Positions 2,743 through 52,188 of a stretch of DNA of 64,000 bases are shown here, piece by piece. Each line of letters opens with the position of its first letter. Positions within the stretch are counted from its first letter, which is position 1. The notes below the pieces were generated by a model. It was not told the origin of the DNA and made no database searches. It saw only the letters and a list, made by a program, of their open reading frames with translations. The DNA lies in NCBI GenBank assembly GCA_021129515.1, contig JAJOLD010000001.1, positions 61,633 through 125,632 of the forward strand, in the 5' to 3' direction. The stretch comes from Minisyncoccota bacterium (lineage in GTDB: Bacteria; Patescibacteriota; Minisyncoccia; Phycocordibacterales; UBA918). A program made the translations under genes and the position numbers.

Positions 2743-5382
2743 ATGGCATCAAAAAAACAACCAAAAACTGGCTGGCATGCACGCGATGACGAACACATCA
2801 TCATCCGCGGCGCACGCACACACAACCTCAAAAATATTGACGTCGATATGCCACGCAACAAACTGGTGGTGATTACTGGACTTTCTGGATCGGGCAAGTC
2901 ATCACTTGCATTTGACACTATCTTTGCAGAAGGGCAGCGACGCTATATTGAATCACTATCAGCATACGCACGACAGTTTCTTCGGCAAATGCAAAAACCC
3001 GACATCGATGAAATCTCAGGGCTTTCTCCCGCTATTTCAATTGACCAAAAGTCAGCATCGCGCAATCCACGCTCCACTGTAGCGACCATTACCGAAATAT
3101 ATGACTATTTGCGCATCCTCTATGCGCGCATAGGGCAACCCTACTGTATTGATACCGATGTACCTATTCAAAAACTCTCACAAGATGAGATTTTAGGTAT
3201 TATATTGAAGTCAATCGAAGAAAAAGAAATCAAAAAAGCGACCAAGGCCTCTGCTCAAGAGGTCATGGGTGTGTCAGTAAGTACCGCAAAGGTAGCCATT
3301 TTTTCACCAGTAGTTGTTGGAAGAAAAGGTGAATACTACCAACTTCTCTACGATTTGCTCGGTAAAGGCTACGAAACGGTCAAAATCGATGGGGAAGTGA
3401 AGCAGCTTCGTGAGAAAATCACCCTGAGCAAAACAAAACGCCATGACATAGATGTGCTCATCGACAAAATCTATGTCAGTGAGTTTACAGACGATCCTAA
3501 AGGATCAAAAGAGCGTCTTTCAGAAGCGGTAGAACTCGCACTCAAAGAATCTGAGGGTCTGGTCAAAATTGAGAACCCTGATGGCACCGAGCGCACCCTC
3601 TCTGCAAAATTTATTTGTCCGGTTGATGGCTCCTCATTCCCAGAGGTAGAGCCACGCCTTTTTTCTTTCAATTCGCCCTATGGTGCCTGTGAGGAGTGTA
3701 ATGGACTTGGTACCGTGGGTCTCTTTAATACTGACATTTGTCCAAGTTGTAAGGGTGCACGACTCCGCAAAGAAGCACTTCGGGTATATCTTGGTGGCGA
3801 TGGTAAAAAAGATTTAGGTAAGAACATTGTCGATTTCACCTCTATGACCATCGAGGAAGCCGCTGACTTTATCGCCAATCTCAAACTCAGTAAAACAGAA
3901 CAAGACATTGCATGGCCTGCATTACGTGAAATCATTGAACGCTTGCAGTTTATGATAAATGTTGGTATTGAATACCTCACACTCGATAGACGTGCGAACA
4001 CCCTCTCAGGTGGTGAAGCACAGCGTATTAGGCTTGCCTCACAACTCGGTTCAGGACTGGTAGGAGCACTCTATGTGCTTGATGAACCCACAATAGGGCT
4101 CCATCAACGCGATAATGACCGCCTCATAAAAACCCTTACCGAACTGCGTGACCTTGGCAATACCATCGTCGTAGTCGAGCACGACGAAGACACTATCTAT
4201 GCAGCAGATTATATCGTTGACATTGGTCCTGGAGCAGGAGTCCATGGGGGAGAAGTGGTTGTGTCTGGCTATCTCGACACGTTGCTCGATGCAAAAACCA
4301 ATCCTTCAAAGTCGGTCACACTTGACTATCTCCGCGGAGACAGAGCCATCCCCATACCTGAGCAACGACGAGATGCAGAAAAGGGCTCCCTCAAAATTCG
4401 CGGTGGCAAAGCATTCAACATCAAAAACGCGCAGATAGATATACCGTTGGGTAGATTTATTGCTGTTACGGGTGTTTCAGGATCAGGAAAGTCAACATTT
4501 ATGTATGAAATTGTACACAAAAACCTCAGGTCACGCCTTGATAAAAAATACCGCACCCCAGATACCTACAACGCAAAAAGCGTTACCGGCACCGAGTATC
4601 TTGGGCGCACTATCCTTATAGACCAGTCACCAATTGGGCGCACTCCACGCTCTAACCCTGCGACATATACAGGTGCATTTACCCATATTCGTGATTTATT
4701 TGCCGCAACCAGTGAGGCACGCGCGCGCGGTTGGAAATCTGGACGATTTTCTTTTAACGTCAAAGGTGGTCGGTGTGAGGCGTGTCAGGGTAATGGTATG
4801 GTTGCTATTGAGATGCATTTTTTGCCAACTGTGTATGTAACCTGTGACGTTTGCAACGGCACCCGATTTACCAAAGAAACACTCGACGTTACCTATAAAG
4901 ACAAAAATATCCACGAGGTACTCCATATGACCATTGAAGAAGCCGACAACTTTTTCATTGACGTACCAGCTATTCATGAGCGACTTAAGGCGCTCCTCGA
5001 CGTCGGACTTGGTTATCTTGAGCTTGGACAAAGCGCAACGACACTCTCTGGAGGGGAAGCACAGCGTGTCAAAATTGCGTCAGAGCTCTATCGTCCACAT
5101 ACAAGCAAAACCATGTACCTACTCGATGAACCGACTATCGGACTGCATTACGAAGATGTTCGAAAATTAATTGAAATTCTCCAAGAATTGGTCAACCGAG
5201 GCAACACCGTTATGGTCATTGAGCACAATCTTGACCTTATTAAATGCGCAGACTATATCATTGACATTGGACCTGAGGGTGGCGCACGCGGTGGCAACAT
5301 CGTTGCAAAGGGTACACCGGAAGATGTGGCTAAAAACAAAGACTCTTTCACCGGTCACTATCTCAAAAAGCTTTTGAAATAG
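2743..5382 (+). CDS. uvrA: Excinuclease ABC subunit A
   Basis: Two ABC ATPase modules ([12 protein letters not shown]..., [12 protein letters not shown]...), LSGGEAQR signatures and Cys-rich zinc-finger segments; 879 aa. Confidence 0.95.
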
Positions 5383-5707: not shown

Positions 5708-7036
5708 CTACTCAGCAATAAAGGTGAGGGCTTTACCACGCTGTGTACCACGACCAGTGCGGCCAATGCGGTGTACATAGTCTTCAAAAGTGCTCGGCAG
5801 GTCATAATTGATAACATGTGAGACATTATCAACATGAATACCGCGCGCGGCGACGTCGGTTGCAACAAGCACGCGTGCATTTCCGCTCTTAAACTTTCGC
5901 AATGAGTGCTGTCGCTGTCCATGGCTCTTGTTACCATGGATTGATTCTGAGGCAATACCGTGCGCCACCAGTGCCTTCGAGAGCTTCTCAACACTGTGTT
6001 TCATAGCACCAAAAATAATGACGCGCTTGAACGCTGGGTCCTCAAGGAGCTCAGTCAATGTGTGGAATTTGTCACTATGCGCGAACGGTACGACGTCTTG
6101 CTCAATACTATTAGTCACGTCTTTCTTCTTTACGGAAATAGTGACAGGGTCGGTAAGGAAGTCGTGCACCAGTGCTTCAATGTCCTTTGACATCGTCGCT
6201 GAGAAAAAGAGCGTCTCATGTGCATGTGGCACTGCGTCCATAATCTTGCGCATGTCATGAATGAATCCCATGTCGAGCATACGGTCTGCCTCGTCGAGTA
6301 CCACCGTGCTGATGCGGTCCATTTTTAGATTTCCACGATCGATAAGGTCGAGGATACGACCTGGTGTACCAATAATGAAATGGTTTTTGCGACGGAGTGC
6401 ATTGATTTGTGGACGAATGTTGGTACCACCCACGCAGGTTGTTGCATACTGCTTAAAACTCTTTGAGAGCTTTCGAAACTCAGCTTCTATCTGCAGTGCA
6501 AGCTCACGGGTTGGGGTTAGAATAATGGTTTGGCGATTGTACTCCTTATCTGTTTTGTGAATGAGTGGAAGCAAAAACGCAGCTGTCTTTCCCGTACCGG
6601 TCTCTGCAAGCCCTATAACATCGCGACCCTTCAAGATTTCAGGAATTGCTTGGTCCTGAATAGGTGATGGGGTTGTGATGCCGAGGTTGTGGACGGTCTT
6701 TACCAATCGATACACCAGCCCAAAGTCTTTAAAGGTGTGCTTTGGTGTATAGATTTCTTCTTTCTGTTCGACAGGGTTTTTGTTGATGAATTGAGATGGA
6801 TCAAATGTTGGCTGTACTCGTCCACCACGACCAGTGCGACGTCCTTTACCGTGGTGTCGACCACCACGAAATGACCCACCGCCACGGCGAGGTCCTTGAT
6901 TGCTTATATTGTTGTTTCGGCGACGTGACCCGCTACTTGAAAACGGGCGTCGCTTGCTCGAATTAGAGCCATTCCGATTGTGTCGGGGGCTCGAACTAGA
7001 GCCATTCCGACTTCGTCGGTGTTGTGTTGTTTGCAT
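5708..7036 (-). CDS. DEAD-box ATP-dependent RNA helicase with an Arg/Gly/Ser-rich N-terminal tail
   Basis: Motifs AETGTGKTAAF, PTRELA, VLDEADRMLDMGF, SAT, HRIGRTGRG. N-terminal RRSRNGSSSS...RRGGGSFRGGRHHGKGRRTGRGGR. Confidence 0.9.
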   Translation of the reverse strand: MQTTQHRRSRNGSSSSPRHNRNGSNSSKRRPFSSSGSRRRNNNISNQGPRRGGGSFRGGRHHGKGRRTGRGGRVQPTFDPSQFINKNPVEQKEEIYTPKHTFKDFGLVYRLVKTVHNLGITTPSPIQDQAIPEILKGRDVIGLAETGTGKTAAFLLPLIHKTDKEYNRQTIILTPTRELALQIEAEFRKLSKSFKQYATTCVGGTNIRPQINALRRKNHFIIGTPGRILDLIDRGNLKMDRISTVVLDEADRMLDMGFIHDMRKIMDAVPHAHETLFFSATMSKDIEALVHDFLTDPVTISVKKKDVTNSIEQDVVPFAHSDKFHTLTELLEDPAFKRVIIFGAMKHSVEKLSKALVAHGIASESIHGNKSHGQRQHSLRKFKSGNARVLVATDVAARGIHVDNVSHVINYDLPSTFEDYVHRIGRTGRGTQRGKALTFIAE

Positions 7037-7240
7037 CTATAGTTGTTGTTTAGTGTGTGGGAGTTACTGAGACAAGCACGAGTACTTTCTGCAGGACATT
7101 ACTAACGAGAGGGTAGTTCTGCATGTCGAAGAGAAACACCCCATGCTTCTGGACCCCACACGAGTATCAAAAGCGTTGCGGTAAAATAACATATTTTTTA
7201 TTATTCGTCAATGTTTCTGTGGAATGATTCGTGATTATAT

Positions 7241-9934: not shown

Positions 9935-10177
9935 TCGTTCCCGTCGTTGCTGCCGCTGCCTGCGCGCTTTCTTTGTTTCGGGAGGTGATCTTCGAAGAGA
10001 TATTCTCTGAGAAGCTTTAGGCTACTTTCCACACTTTTGTTTATGACGAACTGTACCACTGCGCCGTTTACCGCAAAGCTTTGCACTTGGGTTCACAAGG
10101 TACTCCTTCTGGACTTTCCAGATGTGTTGAATATTATCCCGTAATATCACAAAAAAATAAAAAAGGAAGTGACATCC

Positions 10178-10213
10178 AAAAAAAGCACCATCATAGTTGA
10201 TGGCGCTTTTTTT
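10178..10213. terminator. Hairpin with flanking A/T runs (bidirectional terminator-like)
   Basis: aaaaaAGCACCATCAtagtTGATGGCGCTttttttt. Confidence 0.5.
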
Positions 10214-10365
10214 AGTGAACTTGGGTTTTTATTTTGAACTACAACCTCCGATGGAGATTGCAACGCTGTTTCTTCGAGCACAATGCGTCTCCTAATCGAG
10301 GTTGAAGGAATGATGTAAATGTTCTTATTTTTGACTACCTATAACGGTACCAATCATGAATAGCG

Positions 10366-10872
10366 GTGTCAAAAAGTCTGAATATCTGCGCTCTTTTGTG
10401 TCATCACTTTGGTATACTAAACAAAATGAGACCGCATACATATACACAACGCATTGAGAAACTTAAGAGCCGTATGCAATTCTCGGTGGTCTTGGCTTCG
10501 TTTTTTCCTGTGTTATTGCAGGCGATATTTTTTGGGAGCGATGCGACAGCAAACCGTATTATTTTGCTTTGGGGTTTTGTGGTTGCCGTACTAATCACAA
10601 GCTACATGCTGATTGAAATATCACGTGGTGTGATTCATGCAAAAATTCTCTCATACACCAATGCGATGGTACTCCTCAACACCGCGTCATATATTCCGGT
10701 CATGATCATTGCAGCGTTAGTACAGGGAAGTGAAGTTTCGTTTGTGCTTGAGGCACTCTTTCAACTGAGTATGCTTGGTGTATTGGTGATACCGGTAGCT
10801 ATCACCACCTTGCTTGTGTGCAATGTAATACTCAAGGCGTTTCGGATTCAAATTGATGCACCTACGGAGTAA
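10366..10872 (+). CDS. Hypothetical polytopic membrane protein
   Basis: Multiple hydrophobic helices. A probable extended -10 (TGGTATACT, around 10405-10413) suggests the real start is Met 10426 (MRPHTYTQ...). Confidence 0.55.
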   Translation: MSKSLNICALLCHHFGILNKMRPHTYTQRIEKLKSRMQFSVVLASFFPVLLQAIFFGSDATANRIILLWGFVVAVLITSYMLIEISRGVIHAKILSYTNAMVLLNTASYIPVMIIAALVQGSEVSFVLEALFQLSMLGVLVIPVAITTLLVCNVILKAFRIQIDAPTE

Positions 10873-13522: not shown

Positions 13523-13543
13523 GTCCTAGGGGACCCCTAGGAC
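13523..13543. repeat. REP-like palindrome family B (GTCCTAGGGG-A-CCCCTAGGAC), copy 1
   Basis: Perfect 10-bp arms; identical 21-mer at 23315-23335; sits in the divergent intergenic region. Confidence 0.7.
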
Positions 13544-23314: not shown

Positions 23315-23335
23315 GTCCTAGGGGACCCCTAGGAC
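23315..23335. repeat. REP-like palindrome family B, copy 2
   Basis: Identical to 13523-13543; 8 bp after the stop of the upstream gene. Confidence 0.7.
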
Positions 23336-25912: not shown

Positions 25913-26092
25913 GGATTGCTTCGTCATTCCGTTTCACTCCACTTCTCGCAATGACGTCTAGCTGAAACTTACTGTATCCGACTAATTAGTCGGATACAGT
26001 ACGTATGTTGTGTGCTGCGACGGCTAAAAGCGAAGATTTTAGCCGGTGACGAACGCGAAGCGTTCGTCATTGCGAACGGAGTGAAGCAATCC
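25913..26092. repeat. Dense inverted-repeat cluster / MITE-like structured element
   Basis: Terminal inverted segments (GGATTGCTTC...TCGCAATGACG vs CGTCATTGCGA...GAAGCAATCC). Central 30-bp perfect palindrome ACTGTATCCGACTAATTAGTCGGATACAGT (25971-26000). Two further perfect hairpins (CGGCTAAAAgcgaagaTTTTAGCCG; GACGAACGCgaaGCGTTCGTC). Confidence 0.6.
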
Positions 26093-26716: not shown

Positions 26717-26782
26717 ACCCTATAACAAAAGCCGCACCCACTTCGTGGGTGCGGCTTTTGTTGTGCCTGCGTGTGGCACTAC

Positions 26783-26801
26783 TTAGGGATACGAACCCTA
26801 A
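26783..26801. repeat. REP palindrome family A (TTAGGGAT-acg-AACCCTAA), copy 2
   Basis: One mismatch from copy 4 at 33178-33196; lies between convergent genes. Confidence 0.7.
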
Positions 26802-29485: not shown

Positions 29486-30064
29486 ATGAGCAAGTACGAA
29501 TCATACAAAGAAAAAATATTCGCATTCTACGAAGCGCAAAAGCGCATGCCCAGCTATGCCGAAATCATGGAGCTCGTCGGCTTTAAGTCAAAAAATGCCG
29601 TATCAAAACTCATCGACAAGCTCATGGATGAAGGACTTATCGATAAAGATGCACAGGGGAGACTCATCCCCGCGTCACTCGACACCGGTGTACCACTCTT
29701 GGGGCTGGTAGAAGCCGGCATTCCCACCATGGCAGATGCCGACATGCTCGACTCTATTAGTCTTGATAACTACCTAATAGAAGATAAAGCAAAAACCTTC
29801 ATCCTCGAGGTAAAGGGTGACTCAATGATTGAGGCGCATATCGAAGAAGGCGACTACGTCATTGCAGAACGCACCGAAGATGCACGCGACCGCGATATTG
29901 TCGTGGCAGAAGTCGATGGAGAGTGGACGCTCAAATATCTCCGTAAAGATCCCGCACAAAATACCATCTGGCTTGAACCGGCAAACAAGAACTATGCACC
30001 CATTCATCCCGCGCATTCATTGCGCATTGCAGCAATTGTAAAGGGTGTATTAAGGAAATATTAG
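29486..30064 (+). CDS. lexA: LexA repressor
   Basis: N-terminal winged HTH (AEIMELVGFKSKNAVSKLIDKLMDEGLI), Ala-Gly cleavage site (VEAG), S24 peptidase with GDSM and KYL Ser/Lys dyad. Confidence 0.9.
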   Translation: MSKYESYKEKIFAFYEAQKRMPSYAEIMELVGFKSKNAVSKLIDKLMDEGLIDKDAQGRLIPASLDTGVPLLGLVEAGIPTMADADMLDSISLDNYLIEDKAKTFILEVKGDSMIEAHIEEGDYVIAERTEDARDRDIVVAEVDGEWTLKYLRKDPAQNTIWLEPANKNYAPIHPAHSLRIAAIVKGVLRKY

Positions 30065-30106
30065 TTAGTCAGATAAACTACACGCTTAGTTTATCTGACT
30101 AACTAA
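30061..30106. repeat. Perfect 20-bp-stem hairpin overlapping the lexA stop codon
   Basis: TTAGTTAGTCAGATAAACTAcacgctTAGTTTATCTGACTAACTAA; no U-run. Confidence 0.7.
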
Positions 30107-30252
30107 TTCCGTGTCATCATTGCGAAGCATGGAGCAGAGCGGAATGCTGAAGCCTGACTGCATGCGACGCACCTGTTTGCGTAAGTATACGCACAGGCAA
30201 TCCAGAAAGGGTAACCAACATAAAACTTTTTATGTTATAACGTCTATCACAT

Positions 30253-30993
30253 ATGAAGATAGGCTTTTTTGATTCAGGACTCGGGGGACTCACCATTATG
30301 GATGCGGTACGAGCGGCGATGCCGCAGTACGACTACTATTACTACGGAGACACCGCGCACGTGCCGTATGGCGATAAGACCGAAGCAGAAGTATACGAGC
30401 TCACAAAAGCTGGTGTGACACACCTCTTTGAACAAGGTGCGCTCATCGTGATTATTGCCTGCAACACCGCGTCTGCAGAAACACTCCGCAAACTGCAAGA
30501 CACTTTTTTAGTAGAAGCATATCCTGACCGGCGTATTCTCGGCATGATAATTCCCACCATAGAAACCCTCTTAGCTGCAGGCAGCACAAAACCCTTACTC
30601 ATAGGAACCAAGCGCACCGTTGATTCAGGCAAGTACCAAATTGAGCTTGATAAAGTTTCAGAAACACATATTGCGTTACAATCCCTCGCAACACCAACAC
30701 TCGTGCCGTATCTTGAAGCAAAAAGTAGCAACAAGGCGTGTGCGGAACTCACGCAACTGTTGCATGCCTACGCACACCCCTTTGATGCACTTATTTTAGG
30801 ATGCACGCACTACACGATACTTACTGACTGCGTACGTAACCAATATGGTGACCAATGTGTCGTACTCTCACAAGACGAAATCATTCCAACCAAACTCCAA
30901 GAATATCTCAGTCGACACCCAACACTTGAACATGCCTTGACTAAGGGTAGAAACACAACTTGTTACTATAGTGGAGCGTCACACACTATCTGA
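30253..30993 (+). CDS. murI: Glutamate racemase
   Basis: FDSGLGGLTIM, ACNTAS and LGCTHY active-site motifs. Confidence 0.9.
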   Translation: MKIGFFDSGLGGLTIMDAVRAAMPQYDYYYYGDTAHVPYGDKTEAEVYELTKAGVTHLFEQGALIVIIACNTASAETLRKLQDTFLVEAYPDRRILGMIIPTIETLLAAGSTKPLLIGTKRTVDSGKYQIELDKVSETHIALQSLATPTLVPYLEAKSSNKACAELTQLLHAYAHPFDALILGCTHYTILTDCVRNQYGDQCVVLSQDEIIPTKLQEYLSRHPTLEHALTKGRNTTCYYSGASHTI

Positions 30994-32487: not shown

Positions 32488-32506
32488 TTAGGGTTCGTAT
32501 CCCTAA
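32488..32506. repeat. REP palindrome family A, copy 3 (left flank of RAYT-1)
   Basis: TTAGGGTTCGTATCCCTAA; inverted relative to copy 4. Confidence 0.7.
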
Positions 32507-32513
32507 TACAAAA

Positions 32514-33143
32514 TTATTCCAGTAAGCATGCGTCATTAAATCTGCGTTTTTTATATATTGACTGTGCGAGTCTGGCAGCTTCTCGCGCATTGTATGCACT
32601 AGTATGTTTTGTGACTGAGTCAGGCATGAGTACACTTCTCTTTTTACCTGTGTAATGTAACGAGCTTGTATACCAAATATGCTGTGGCACTGCTACGTCG
32701 TGAACAGTATGATTTTCGTTTATATACGCAAAAAGGTATTGATACTGTTCCTCACTTACAACATGCACTCGCTTAAATCGTCCTTGAAATAATGCGCCGC
32801 TTCTTTCATTTTTTTCATTGAAATACCCTGCATACCCCACGCTTACGCGTCTCATGAACTCAGTAATGCCATCCTCGATCACTTGTTTGATGAGCAAATG
32901 AAAACGGTTTCCTACCAAGGCATACGCATGAATATCGACCAATTGCTTATTAGAATCATGTCGGTGTATGTATGCCTGTTGAAAGTTAATGATTGGTTCT
33001 ACTGTATTAAAGAGCTGCAGTGAATAATAGAATCGCTTGTAATCAGCTTCATTGCAGAAAATGGTGCGTGTATCCACACCTCGACTATATATATGGTAGA
33101 TTTCATTGGTTATGAGCGGAACTTTTTTGTACGGCATAGGCAA
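32514..33143 (-). CDS. REP-associated tyrosine transposase (RAYT; IS200/IS605 Y1 HUH family), paralogue 1
   Basis: YHIYSRG, HUH motif RFHLLIKQ, catalytic-Tyr motif LFAYINENHTVH; flanked by family-A palindromes. Confidence 0.8.
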   Translation of the reverse strand: MPMPYKKVPLITNEIYHIYSRGVDTRTIFCNEADYKRFYYSLQLFNTVEPIINFQQAYIHRHDSNKQLVDIHAYALVGNRFHLLIKQVIEDGITEFMRRVSVGYAGYFNEKNERSGALFQGRFKRVHVVSEEQYQYLFAYINENHTVHDVAVPQHIWYTSSLHYTGKKRSVLMPDSVTKHTSAYNAREAARLAQSIYKKRRFNDACLLE

Positions 33144-33177
33144 TTATCACAAAAAGAATAATAATTGACCTGTGGTA

Positions 33178-33196
33178 TTAGGGATACGATCCCTAA
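33178..33196. repeat. REP palindrome family A, copy 4 (right flank of RAYT-1)
   Basis: TTAGGGATacgATCCCTAA, 8-bp stem with 3-nt loop. Confidence 0.7.
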
Positions 33197-44617: not shown

Positions 44618-44636
44618 TACAAGGTCCGACCTTGTA
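44618..44636. repeat. Diverged family-C-like palindrome (TACAAGGTC-c-GACCTTGTA) between the T-box terminator and the aspS RBS
   Basis: 9-bp perfect arms; shares the GGTC.GACC core with the RAYT-2 flanking palindromes. Confidence 0.5.
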
Positions 44637-51494: not shown

Positions 51495-51517
51495 ATACAG
51501 GGGTCGGACCCCTGTAT
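51495..51517. repeat. REP palindrome family C (ATACAGGGGTC|GGACCCCTGTAT), left flank of RAYT-2
   Basis: Perfect 23-bp palindrome. Confidence 0.75.
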
Positions 51518-51533
51518 AGGATATACTAAAATC

Positions 51534-52157
51534 ATGCCAAGAAATCTTACTCCCCTTATTACGGGCGAAACATACCATATATACAATAGAGGTACTGAGA
51601 AGAGAAATATTTTCTGTGATAAGCAAGATTACCTCAGGTTTTATGCATCATTAGACCGTTTCAATATTGAAGAACCAGTTTTGAGCTTGCGGGATGCGAA
51701 AAGAAATAGTGATACAGATATCAAGCGTCTTGTTTCTATATCTGCATATTGCTTACTTCCAAATCATTTCCATCTTATGATGACTCAGTTATTGGATGGC
51801 GGTATTAGTGAATTCTTAAAAAGAGTCACTGGTGGTTACAGTGGCTATTTTAATGAAAAAAACAATCGTTCAGGCTCTCTATTTCAAGGTAAATTTAAAC
51901 GCATTCATGTAGATAGTGAAGCATACAGGCAATATTTGCTTGTATACATCAATGAAAATCATCATGTACATAAACTTGATGGTGTTTGTGATATATATCA
52001 TACAAGTTCCGTGCATTATCAGGGTCTCAAGCGCAGTAATCTTATTCAAGACAGTCATATCGAAAAATATTCAACACAAGAAGCCAAAAAGTTGGCAGCT
52101 GATATATACCAAAGACGAAATGCTGAAAAGAAACTACTTCAAGTCTTAGGTGAATAA
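51534..52157 (+). CDS. REP-associated tyrosine transposase (RAYT), paralogue 2
   Basis: YHIYNRG, HUH motif NHFHLMMTQ, Tyr motif LLVYINENHHVH; about 55 % identical to paralogue 1; flanked by family-C palindromes. Confidence 0.8.
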   Translation: MPRNLTPLITGETYHIYNRGTEKRNIFCDKQDYLRFYASLDRFNIEEPVLSLRDAKRNSDTDIKRLVSISAYCLLPNHFHLMMTQLLDGGISEFLKRVTGGYSGYFNEKNNRSGSLFQGKFKRIHVDSEAYRQYLLVYINENHHVHKLDGVCDIYHTSSVHYQGLKRSNLIQDSHIEKYSTQEAKKLAADIYQRRNAEKKLLQVLGE

Positions 52158-52163
52158 ATACAC

Positions 52164-52188
52164 TATACAGGGGTCGGACCCCTGTATA
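52164..52188. repeat. REP palindrome family C, right flank of RAYT-2
   Basis: TATACAGGGGTCGGACCCCTGTATA, perfect 25-bp palindrome. Confidence 0.75.

Follow-up and report, generated by a model that had tools for sequence, protein, structure and literature searches.

Two divergent Y1/HUH genes and their palindromes

The 64,000-nucleotide stretch of Minisyncoccota bacterium DNA analysed here (contig JAJOLD010000001.1; hereafter the window) contains two genes related to Y1/HUH transposases (HUH, His-hydrophobic-His), each of which lies between two copies of a short palindrome. Paralogue 1 occupies positions 32514–33137 on the − strand and codes for a 207-amino-acid protein (MCD5381759.1, annotated 'hypothetical protein'; locus tags LR017_) that we tentatively assign to the class-2 Y1/HUH proteins resembling the REP-associated tyrosine transposases (RAYTs; REP, repetitive extragenic palindrome). 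On its 3' side, 7 nt past the stop codon, is the palindrome TTAGGGTTCGTATCCCTAA (32488–32506), which has one T.T mismatch in its stem, and on its 5' side, 40 nt upstream of the ATG, is TTAGGGATACGATCCCTAA (33178–33196), which has a perfect stem; an in-frame TTG is located two codons upstream of the ATG, at 33143. The hairpin-gene-hairpin unit measures 709 bp (32488–33196), and the loops of its two hairpins are opposite on the + strand (CGT and ACG), just as an earlier note on this DNA had described for a pair of nearly identical 19-bp hairpins.

We refer to this palindrome as P1 (TTAGGGWT-N3-WWCCCTAA). A search of the whole window with TTAGGGWTNNNWWCCCTAA, allowing up to two mismatches, returned only four matches, the two flanking copies and two solitary copies at 323–341 and 26783–26801; 0.11 matches are expected by chance, and the observed number was attained in none of 100 shuffles. 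Relaxing the search to three or five mismatches gave no further credible copy in the window, and half-site and five-mismatch searches found there no degenerate relics of P1 or of the palindromes P2 and P3 described below. Folded as single-stranded DNA, all four P1 copies form hairpins (-5.0 to -6.7 kcal/mol, with z-scores of -3.5 to -5.5). Both solitary copies are intergenic and stand where the earlier note had placed them. The first (loop GCA) lies 26 nt past the stop codon of uvrB, identified from the UvrB domains on record for a strain contig (L208); the second lies between convergent genes, with a + strand open reading frame (ORF) and terminator hairpin (26724–26762) on one side and the stop codon of a − strand DoxX gene on the other. 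The 26783 and 32488 copies are identical at 19 of 19 positions on opposite strands, including a shared stem mismatch (T.T on one strand, A.A on the other), which argues for copying rather than independent origin. Contigs of strains 99.9% identical to the window add about 9.6 kb and contain no new copy of P1. An apparent indel in one strain contig (L207) is a scaffold gap of Ns and not an insertion.

Among the matches listed in a scan of a genome contig collection with TTAGGGATNNNNNCCCTAA there were at least 119, mostly single chance matches in unrelated phyla; the metagenome-assembled genome (MAG) from which the window derives is not among the matches listed. A repeat that is dispersed in a Flavobacteriales MAG, JALTUD01, also has P1 as its core: YGTTAGGGAT-N3-ATCCCTAACRY (pieces L009, L016, L029, L035, L050, L053, L062, L069, L076, L080, L085, L089, L097, L098, L103, L111 and L112). 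No homologue of the window Y1 proteins was found in the 1.5–8-kb JALTUD01 pieces that were fetched.

The AlphaFold (AF2) model of paralogue 1 is confident (pLDDT 89.7), and its best Foldseek match in the PDB is 4ER8, the E. coli TnpA_REP protein bound to a REP hairpin (E 6e-6, TM 0.69). IS608 and ISDra2 TnpA score about 100-fold more weakly, and matches to 4ER8, 2A6M, 2XMA and 2VJV all have a probability of 1.00, in accord with the core of the HUH fold and a C-terminal helix that carries the catalytic Tyr. Profile searches of PDB sequences gave E values of about 0.01 for 4ER8 and ISDra2 TnpA alike, and Pfam yields only a weak Y1_Tnp match with either paralogue, with no C-terminal helix-turn-helix (HTH)-like domain (Bac_DnaA_C, HTH_23 or HTH_28). 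The earlier note had proposed setting TnpA_REP and IS200 profiles against each other, and here the outcome favours the former: all 28 aligned family members match REP_Tyr_transpos (best E 1.5e-16), and three of the 28 weakly match IS200. These profile matches and the predicted structure support grouping paralogue 1, a Y1/HUH protein, with TnpA_REP/RAYT in preference to IS200 TnpA. Its tyrosine motif is Y138-INE-N142, followed by His. The HUH motif had been read as RFHLL; the Y1/HUH fold holds up, but the motif is not a true HUH, as the triad is R78-F-H80 and the intact His-hydrophobic-His metal-binding motif is absent.

That intact motif (H-F-H) is present in paralogue 2, a 207-amino-acid protein encoded on the + strand at 51534–52157, 18 kb from paralogue 1 and 52% identical to it by tblastn (MCD5381777.1, annotated 'transposase'). 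Paralogue 2 is bracketed by a palindrome of its own, P2, with one perfect copy, TACAGGGGTCGGACCCCTGTA, at 51496–51516, 17 nt upstream of the ATG, and a second at 52166–52186, 8 nt past the stop codon, with its loop oriented as in the 5' copy. P2 differs in sequence from P1, and within the window each paralogue is paired with its own palindrome.

Paralogue 2 lies between a gene for a 162-residue hypothetical protein (hyp162) and Impact_N-dnaJ-dnaK-grpE. The order hyp162-[cassette]-Impact_N-dnaJ is common to the window and to two relatives, L001 (a 1.08-Mb contig) and L002, with the Y1 cassettes at 51496–52186, 6459–7210 and 9945–10659 respectively, and in a fourth genome (L210) a Y1 cassette also adjoins dnaJ. 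Across the three syntenic loci the neighbouring genes are 46–80% identical and the Y1 proteins 50–52% identical; the palindrome differs in each of the three genomes, yet the two copies within one genome are identical over 21–27 nt. The conserved position beside diverged neighbours indicates that the paralogue 2 cassette stays in place over long periods and is inherited vertically, and re-copying, gene conversion or selection for binding may keep the hairpins within a genome matched to each other. In L001 (the complete contig ERZ25072999 ctg321093), the entire cassette, gene and both hairpins together, is flipped with respect to the hyp162 homologue and Impact_N, its two conserved neighbours, suggesting that the inversion occurred at the palindromes.

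With its length of about 0.7 kb, its single Y1 gene and hairpins close to both ends, the paralogue 1 unit could be an IS200-type autonomous insertion sequence (IS), in which case the 709-bp cassette would itself be mobile and the palindromes would be its subterminal left-end and right-end hairpins; the NCBI annotation of paralogue 2 and the Foldseek matches, which also include IS608, ISDra2 and IS200 TnpA, are in keeping with this. However, IS200/IS605 elements need asymmetric ends on one strand, whereas here the hairpins at the two ends are perfect palindromes with the same sequence, and their relative orientation can be direct or inverted. The tyrosine motif is Y-x3-N and not Y-x3-Q, no tnpB is present, and hairpins also occur without the gene, as solitary and in-gene copies. 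The cassette has kept its position while its neighbours diverged, and the two window copies differ at nearly half of their residues and in their palindromes, whereas IS200 copies within one genome average 99% identity (PMC6006769). We therefore consider a mobile IS200-type element highly improbable, in agreement with the earlier view that this is not a classical IS.

Cognate palindromes across the protein family

Both proteins belong to a family of about 1,900 clusters (E≤1e-10), found mostly in Patescibacteria metagenomes, and a few homologues carry the JGI label "REP element-mobilizing transposase RayT". The family motifs, determined from 230 sequences, are N-H-[FYI]-H (NH[FY]H being common), F-Q and Y-[IV]-x-x-N. 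They are similar to those of class 2 in the TnpA_Y1 classification (Y-x3-N-P and NHuH; Quentin et al. 2018, PMC6006769), above all to the second motif set of its subclass 2.1. Of the 230 members, 228 retain the residue corresponding to Y138, and 228 have Y-x3-N; the following residue, His in paralogue 1, is Pro in 86 of 230, and in the F-Q motif F is present in 222 of 230 and Q in 206 of 230.

We sampled the loci of 80 relatives from metagenomes together with several from assemblies, and scored a gene as bracketed if the same hairpin, with a stem of at least 7 and at least 85% identity, was present on both sides. Among 81 loci with usable flanks, both window paralogues included, 35 are bracketed; the corresponding figure for random intervals, matched in length and drawn from the same loci, is 0 of 550. 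A simple shared-k-mer test suggests that the true bracketed fraction is higher. Bracketing by cognate palindromes, one element of the REP/RAYT (REPIN) architecture that the earlier note had proposed, is thus well borne out; two other elements are missing from the window, where there are no inverted doublets at REPIN spacing and where the flanks of P1–P3 have no GTAG tag or other conservation beyond the palindrome. In the bracketed loci the upstream copy ends a median of 22 nt before the start codon and the downstream copy begins a median of 6 nt after the stop codon. The palindromes vary from locus to locus around a common centre, GRGGTC-N-GACCYC, and they have diverged together with the proteins: protein identity is correlated with palindrome identity (Mantel r 0.34, a value reached by none of 2000 permutations).

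Thirteen of the 35 bracketed loci have an extra cognate palindrome in-frame inside the Y1 coding sequence (CDS), with all three frames used across loci (L005 at 10189–10211, L126, L128, L131, L142, L149, L151, L152, L159, L173, L175, L182 and L201). These copies are at two positions in the protein, one preceding the HUH strand by about 20–25 residues and the other following Y-x3-N by about 8, and both are loops on the AF2 model. Neither window paralogue has an in-gene copy. In some relatives, REPIN-like back-to-back inverted doublets of the cognate hairpin adjoin or lie within the Y1 gene (L149 at 4914–4955, L159 at 5177–5223 and 5761–5807, L169 at 561–603, and L173 at 244–281).

The stereotyped placing of the flanking copies, and the restriction of copies to the gene in most relatives, could also reflect fixed cis-regulatory sites (an operator, a terminator or an mRNA hairpin) that selection has matched to the protein without any DNA mobility. 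There is in many loci too little promoter room upstream, so that the upstream copy probably overlaps the promoter or 5' untranslated region; a scan for the sigma-70 consensus gave no convincing candidate promoter for either paralogue. For the convergent Impact_N gene, the P2 copy downstream of paralogue 2 has a terminator-like score, although the terminator-like calls on the palindromes are on the wrong strand for the Y1 genes and the hairpins have no T-tails on the gene's own strand. Regulatory sites of this kind would also not account easily for CDS-internal copies in three reading frames and at two protein positions, for inverted doublets and tandem copies in relatives, or for solitary copies in unrelated intergenic regions, one of which reproduces a flank copy with its mismatch included. 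Nor is identity over 21–27 nt, beyond the conserved core, readily explained by selection for binding alone. A purely cis-regulatory role consequently seems very unlikely to us.

Probable hairpin copying, activity of paralogue 1 and a proposed mechanism

The window has several further solitary hairpins. P3, GTCCTAGGGGACCCCTAGGAC, lies at 13523–13543 between divergent genes, with a second, identical copy at 23315–23335, 8 nt past a stop codon. No Y1 gene cognate to P3 is present in the window and no match to it was found among 209 fetched loci; we predict that its cognate gene is elsewhere in the source genome. P0014, considered as a third paralogue of the source MAG, comes from another assembly. 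P4 (40917–40953) is between scpA and scpB, and its 19-nt core matches the cognate palindrome of L128 at 17 of 19 positions and by eye is also close to that of L126; P5, TACAAGGTCCGACCTTGTA (44618–44636), matches the cognate palindrome of the L173 Y1 gene at 18 of 19. Shuffled controls gave on average 0.26 matches of the P4 and P5 type. Neither P4 nor P5 has a Y1 gene close by, and each is predicted to bracket one elsewhere in the source MAG. All six solitary hairpins of the window (two P1, two P3, P4 and P5) are intergenic, and they form a thin scatter, far below canonical REP densities. There are no tRNA genes or Rfam families in the window, and the hairpins are therefore not parts of known RNAs. 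Two other structured segments are a series of three strong hairpins (stems of 14, 9 and 10 bp) at 25970–26069, within an ORF-free gap of about 440 bp and without an Rfam or tRNA match, and a 48-nt perfect hairpin with a 21-bp stem at 30060–30107, in the gap between ORFs ending at 30064 and starting at 30253, which is unlike the Y1-type palindromes.

The earlier note had suggested an active or recently active system, which for paralogue 1 is doubtful. At position 78, where each of the 225 other family members has His, all five sequences of the 90% cluster of paralogue 1 have Arg; the residue concerned, the first His of the HUH motif, binds metal in IS608 TnpA. Among the four P1 copies, three different loops occur and two stems contain a mismatch. 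Judging from R78 and these partly degenerate copies, cleavage by paralogue 1 has most likely been lost, and the protein is probably an impaired nuclease. Continuing activity and dispersal would require either that paralogue 1 works with Arg as the first HUH residue or that P1 is acted on in trans by a different paralogue. The paralogue 1 ORF is intact in all five sequences, which come from several public sources, and all of the other invariant family residues are kept; the identity of the solitary 26783 copy with a flank copy suggests fairly recent copying, and an intact H-F-H paralogue is close by. However, P2 differs from P1, so action in trans is not expected, and none of the palindrome sites is polymorphic among the strains at 99.9% identity. 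We regard present-day activity as unlikely. Two strain variants in the paralogue 1 cluster, P0074 and P0075, are recorded at 195 amino acids, 12 residues short at the end, which may reflect either contig ends or an altered 3' end beside the downstream palindrome.

The interpretation that we favour, with a probability of about 0.7, is that 32488–33196 is a REPtron- or TIRtron-type cassette (TIR, terminal inverted repeat), in which a class-2 Y1/HUH gene of the RAYT/TnpA_REP-like kind is bracketed by its predicted target hairpins and is vertically inherited, paralogue 1 probably being impaired. The cassette belongs to a large and apparently undescribed branch of the RAYT-like family, mostly from Patescibacteria. 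Structures solved for E. coli TnpA_REP and IS608 TnpA suggest, by analogy, a mechanism. A dimeric enzyme would bind the palindrome as a hairpin in single-stranded DNA and cut beside it using Tyr138, with a metal held by the HUH histidines and Asn142, and would rejoin the strands after cutting. Over evolutionary time the hairpins would be copied mainly over short range, to both flanks of the gene, to surface loops of its own CDS and into adjacent inverted doublets, and occasionally to distant intergenic sites, which here would be those at 323 and 26783. The same copying would keep the hairpins of one locus identical while hairpins drift between genomes, and the cassette itself would stay put and be inherited vertically. 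Paralogue 1 may at best be a hairpin binder, with its solitary P1 copies being products of earlier activity.

Several observations weigh against this interpretation. The loops of the two flanking hairpins are in direct orientation in 19 bracketed loci and inverted in 16, a distribution that follows neither the rule for IS200 nor that for REPtrons, and we know of no Y1 mechanism that predicts such mixed orientation. Dispersal of the palindrome, as the earlier note had it, does occur but is weak, with just two solitary P1 copies in about 73.5 kb of window and strain contigs, both intergenic; in the relatives there are 11 extra cognate copies per 312 kb, nearly all no more than 400 bp from the gene, and a function limited to the locus of the gene would be equally compatible with this pattern. 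Binding and cleavage are extrapolated from structural relatives that are only about 12–15% identical, and the profile scores of paralogue 1 fall short of their thresholds (Pfam Y1_Tnp, 15.8 bits with a threshold of 23; NCBIfam REP_Tyr_transpos, 22 bits with a cut-off of 80). The reading frame is intact despite R78, and some activity or another function may therefore persist in paralogue 1. Finally, the sample contains no syntenic relative of the paralogue 1 locus.

The precise inversion of the L001 cassette, the random orientation of the flank loops, and the identity of copies within a locus despite about 50% protein divergence raise a further possibility: that the Patescibacteria Y1 family is a self-contained, self-homogenising module that acts on its own locus and is not a hairpin disperser, with its two or three cognate hairpins (in the 5' flank, within the CDS and in the 3' flank) serving autoregulation or enzyme-driven inversion or exchange of the cassette. 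We think it rather unlikely, but if it were true, the long vertical retention of these genes in genomes of about 1 Mb would reflect a host function in the processing of single-stranded DNA.

Under the favoured interpretation of a RAYT-like cassette with its own target hairpins, a RAYT-like branch has been retained in some of the smallest bacterial genomes, at least once at a fixed chromosomal position. TnpA_REP-type genes have been described as enriched in large genomes (Quentin et al., PMC6006769), and both that survey and that of Bertels 2017 used complete genomes. In this branch the gene has a minimal palindrome of its own on either side, the spread of palindromes through the genome seems very limited, and copies are often within the gene, which bears on whether hairpin dispersal is a function or a by-product of RAYT-type enzymes. 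The 35 matched protein-hairpin pairs also provide a compact natural test set for a Y1 recognition code, and there is practical value in a corrected annotation of the gene as RAYT-like, not an IS, and probably catalytically impaired.

Relationship to IS200, RAYT and TIRYT systems

A full-text literature search uncovered no work that connects RAYT, REPIN or REP with Patescibacteria or the candidate phyla radiation; one paper alone contains the two terms 'REP-associated tyrosine transposase' and 'candidate phyla radiation' together, and its concern with them is a passing mention of an archaeal K07491 match. The survey of complete genomes by Quentin et al. does not mention Patescibacteria (PMC6006769). 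The window cassettes share with the IS200/IS605 elements (IS200, IS608 and ISDra2) the Y1/HUH catalytic fold and a single-gene unit of about 0.7 kb, and IS200/IS605 enzymes recognise hairpins in single-stranded DNA, as by analogy the window proteins may. They differ from them in the Y-x3-N motif, the divergence of the paralogues, the fixed locus, the symmetric identical ends and the solitary hairpins.

The closer parallels are with E. coli TnpA_REP and the REPtron (Ton-Hoang 2012; Messing 2012, 4ER8) and with RAYT-REP/REPIN systems (Nunvar 2010; Bertels & Rainey 2011), with which the cassettes share the Y1/HUH fold, a gene bracketed by cognate hairpins, one palindrome family per paralogue, low identity between paralogues and, for paralogue 2, vertical inheritance at a fixed locus. 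The presence of divergent paralogues that have separate hairpins is reported for RAYT-type genes and not for IS200 (PMC6006769). Unlike REP and REPIN sequences, the hairpins of the window cassette lack a GTAG or GT[AG]G tag, the repeat unit is a single near-perfect palindrome of 19–25 bp, dispersed copies are very few in the window, and it has no REPIN doublets; by comparison, canonical REPs number tens to hundreds per genome, and flanking 16-mers number 57–140 per replicon for Bertels groups 2 and 3. The flank orientation is also random, F-Q replaces the W motif, and the NCBIfam score is far under its cut-off.

In the TIRYT/TIRtron systems (Di Nocera et al. 2013, PMC3733652), which are equated with TnpA_Y1 subclass 2.1 (Quentin et al. 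2018, PMC6006769) and Bertels group 1, a RAYT-like gene is likewise bracketed by cognate repeats. As in the TIRtron, the flanks here are not GTAG REPs and repeat abundance seems low; for Bertels group 1, flanking 16-mers have about 12 occurrences. The NH[YF]H, FQ and Y[IV]HLNP motif set of subclass 2.1 fits the more distant members of the family, whereas the subgroup closest to the window has Y-I-N-E-N-H, with no Pro. The GGGGWSAS sequence of some TIRs overlaps the family core GRGGTC-N-GACCYC; by inspection it is fitted exactly by the palindromes of L002 (GGGGTGAC) and L188 (GGGGTCAG) and not by P1 (GGGATACG). In the present cassettes a flanking element is a complete palindrome in itself and not a single arm belonging to a long TIR. 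Quentin et al. (PMC6006769) reported no REP-like structures for subclass 2.1 and a C-terminal HTH-like domain, which the window paralogues do not have in Pfam.

Subclass 2.4 of Quentin et al. 2018 offers a parallel for the cognate hairpins that relatives carry within their own reading frame without breaking it. GT[AG]G feet belong to the subclass 2.4 REPs and set them apart from the palindromes described here. In-gene REPs were found to be unique to subclass 2.4, where they lie between HuH and Y (PMC6006769), whereas the in-gene copies in this family lie before HUH or after Y-x3-N, and these positions are therefore new.

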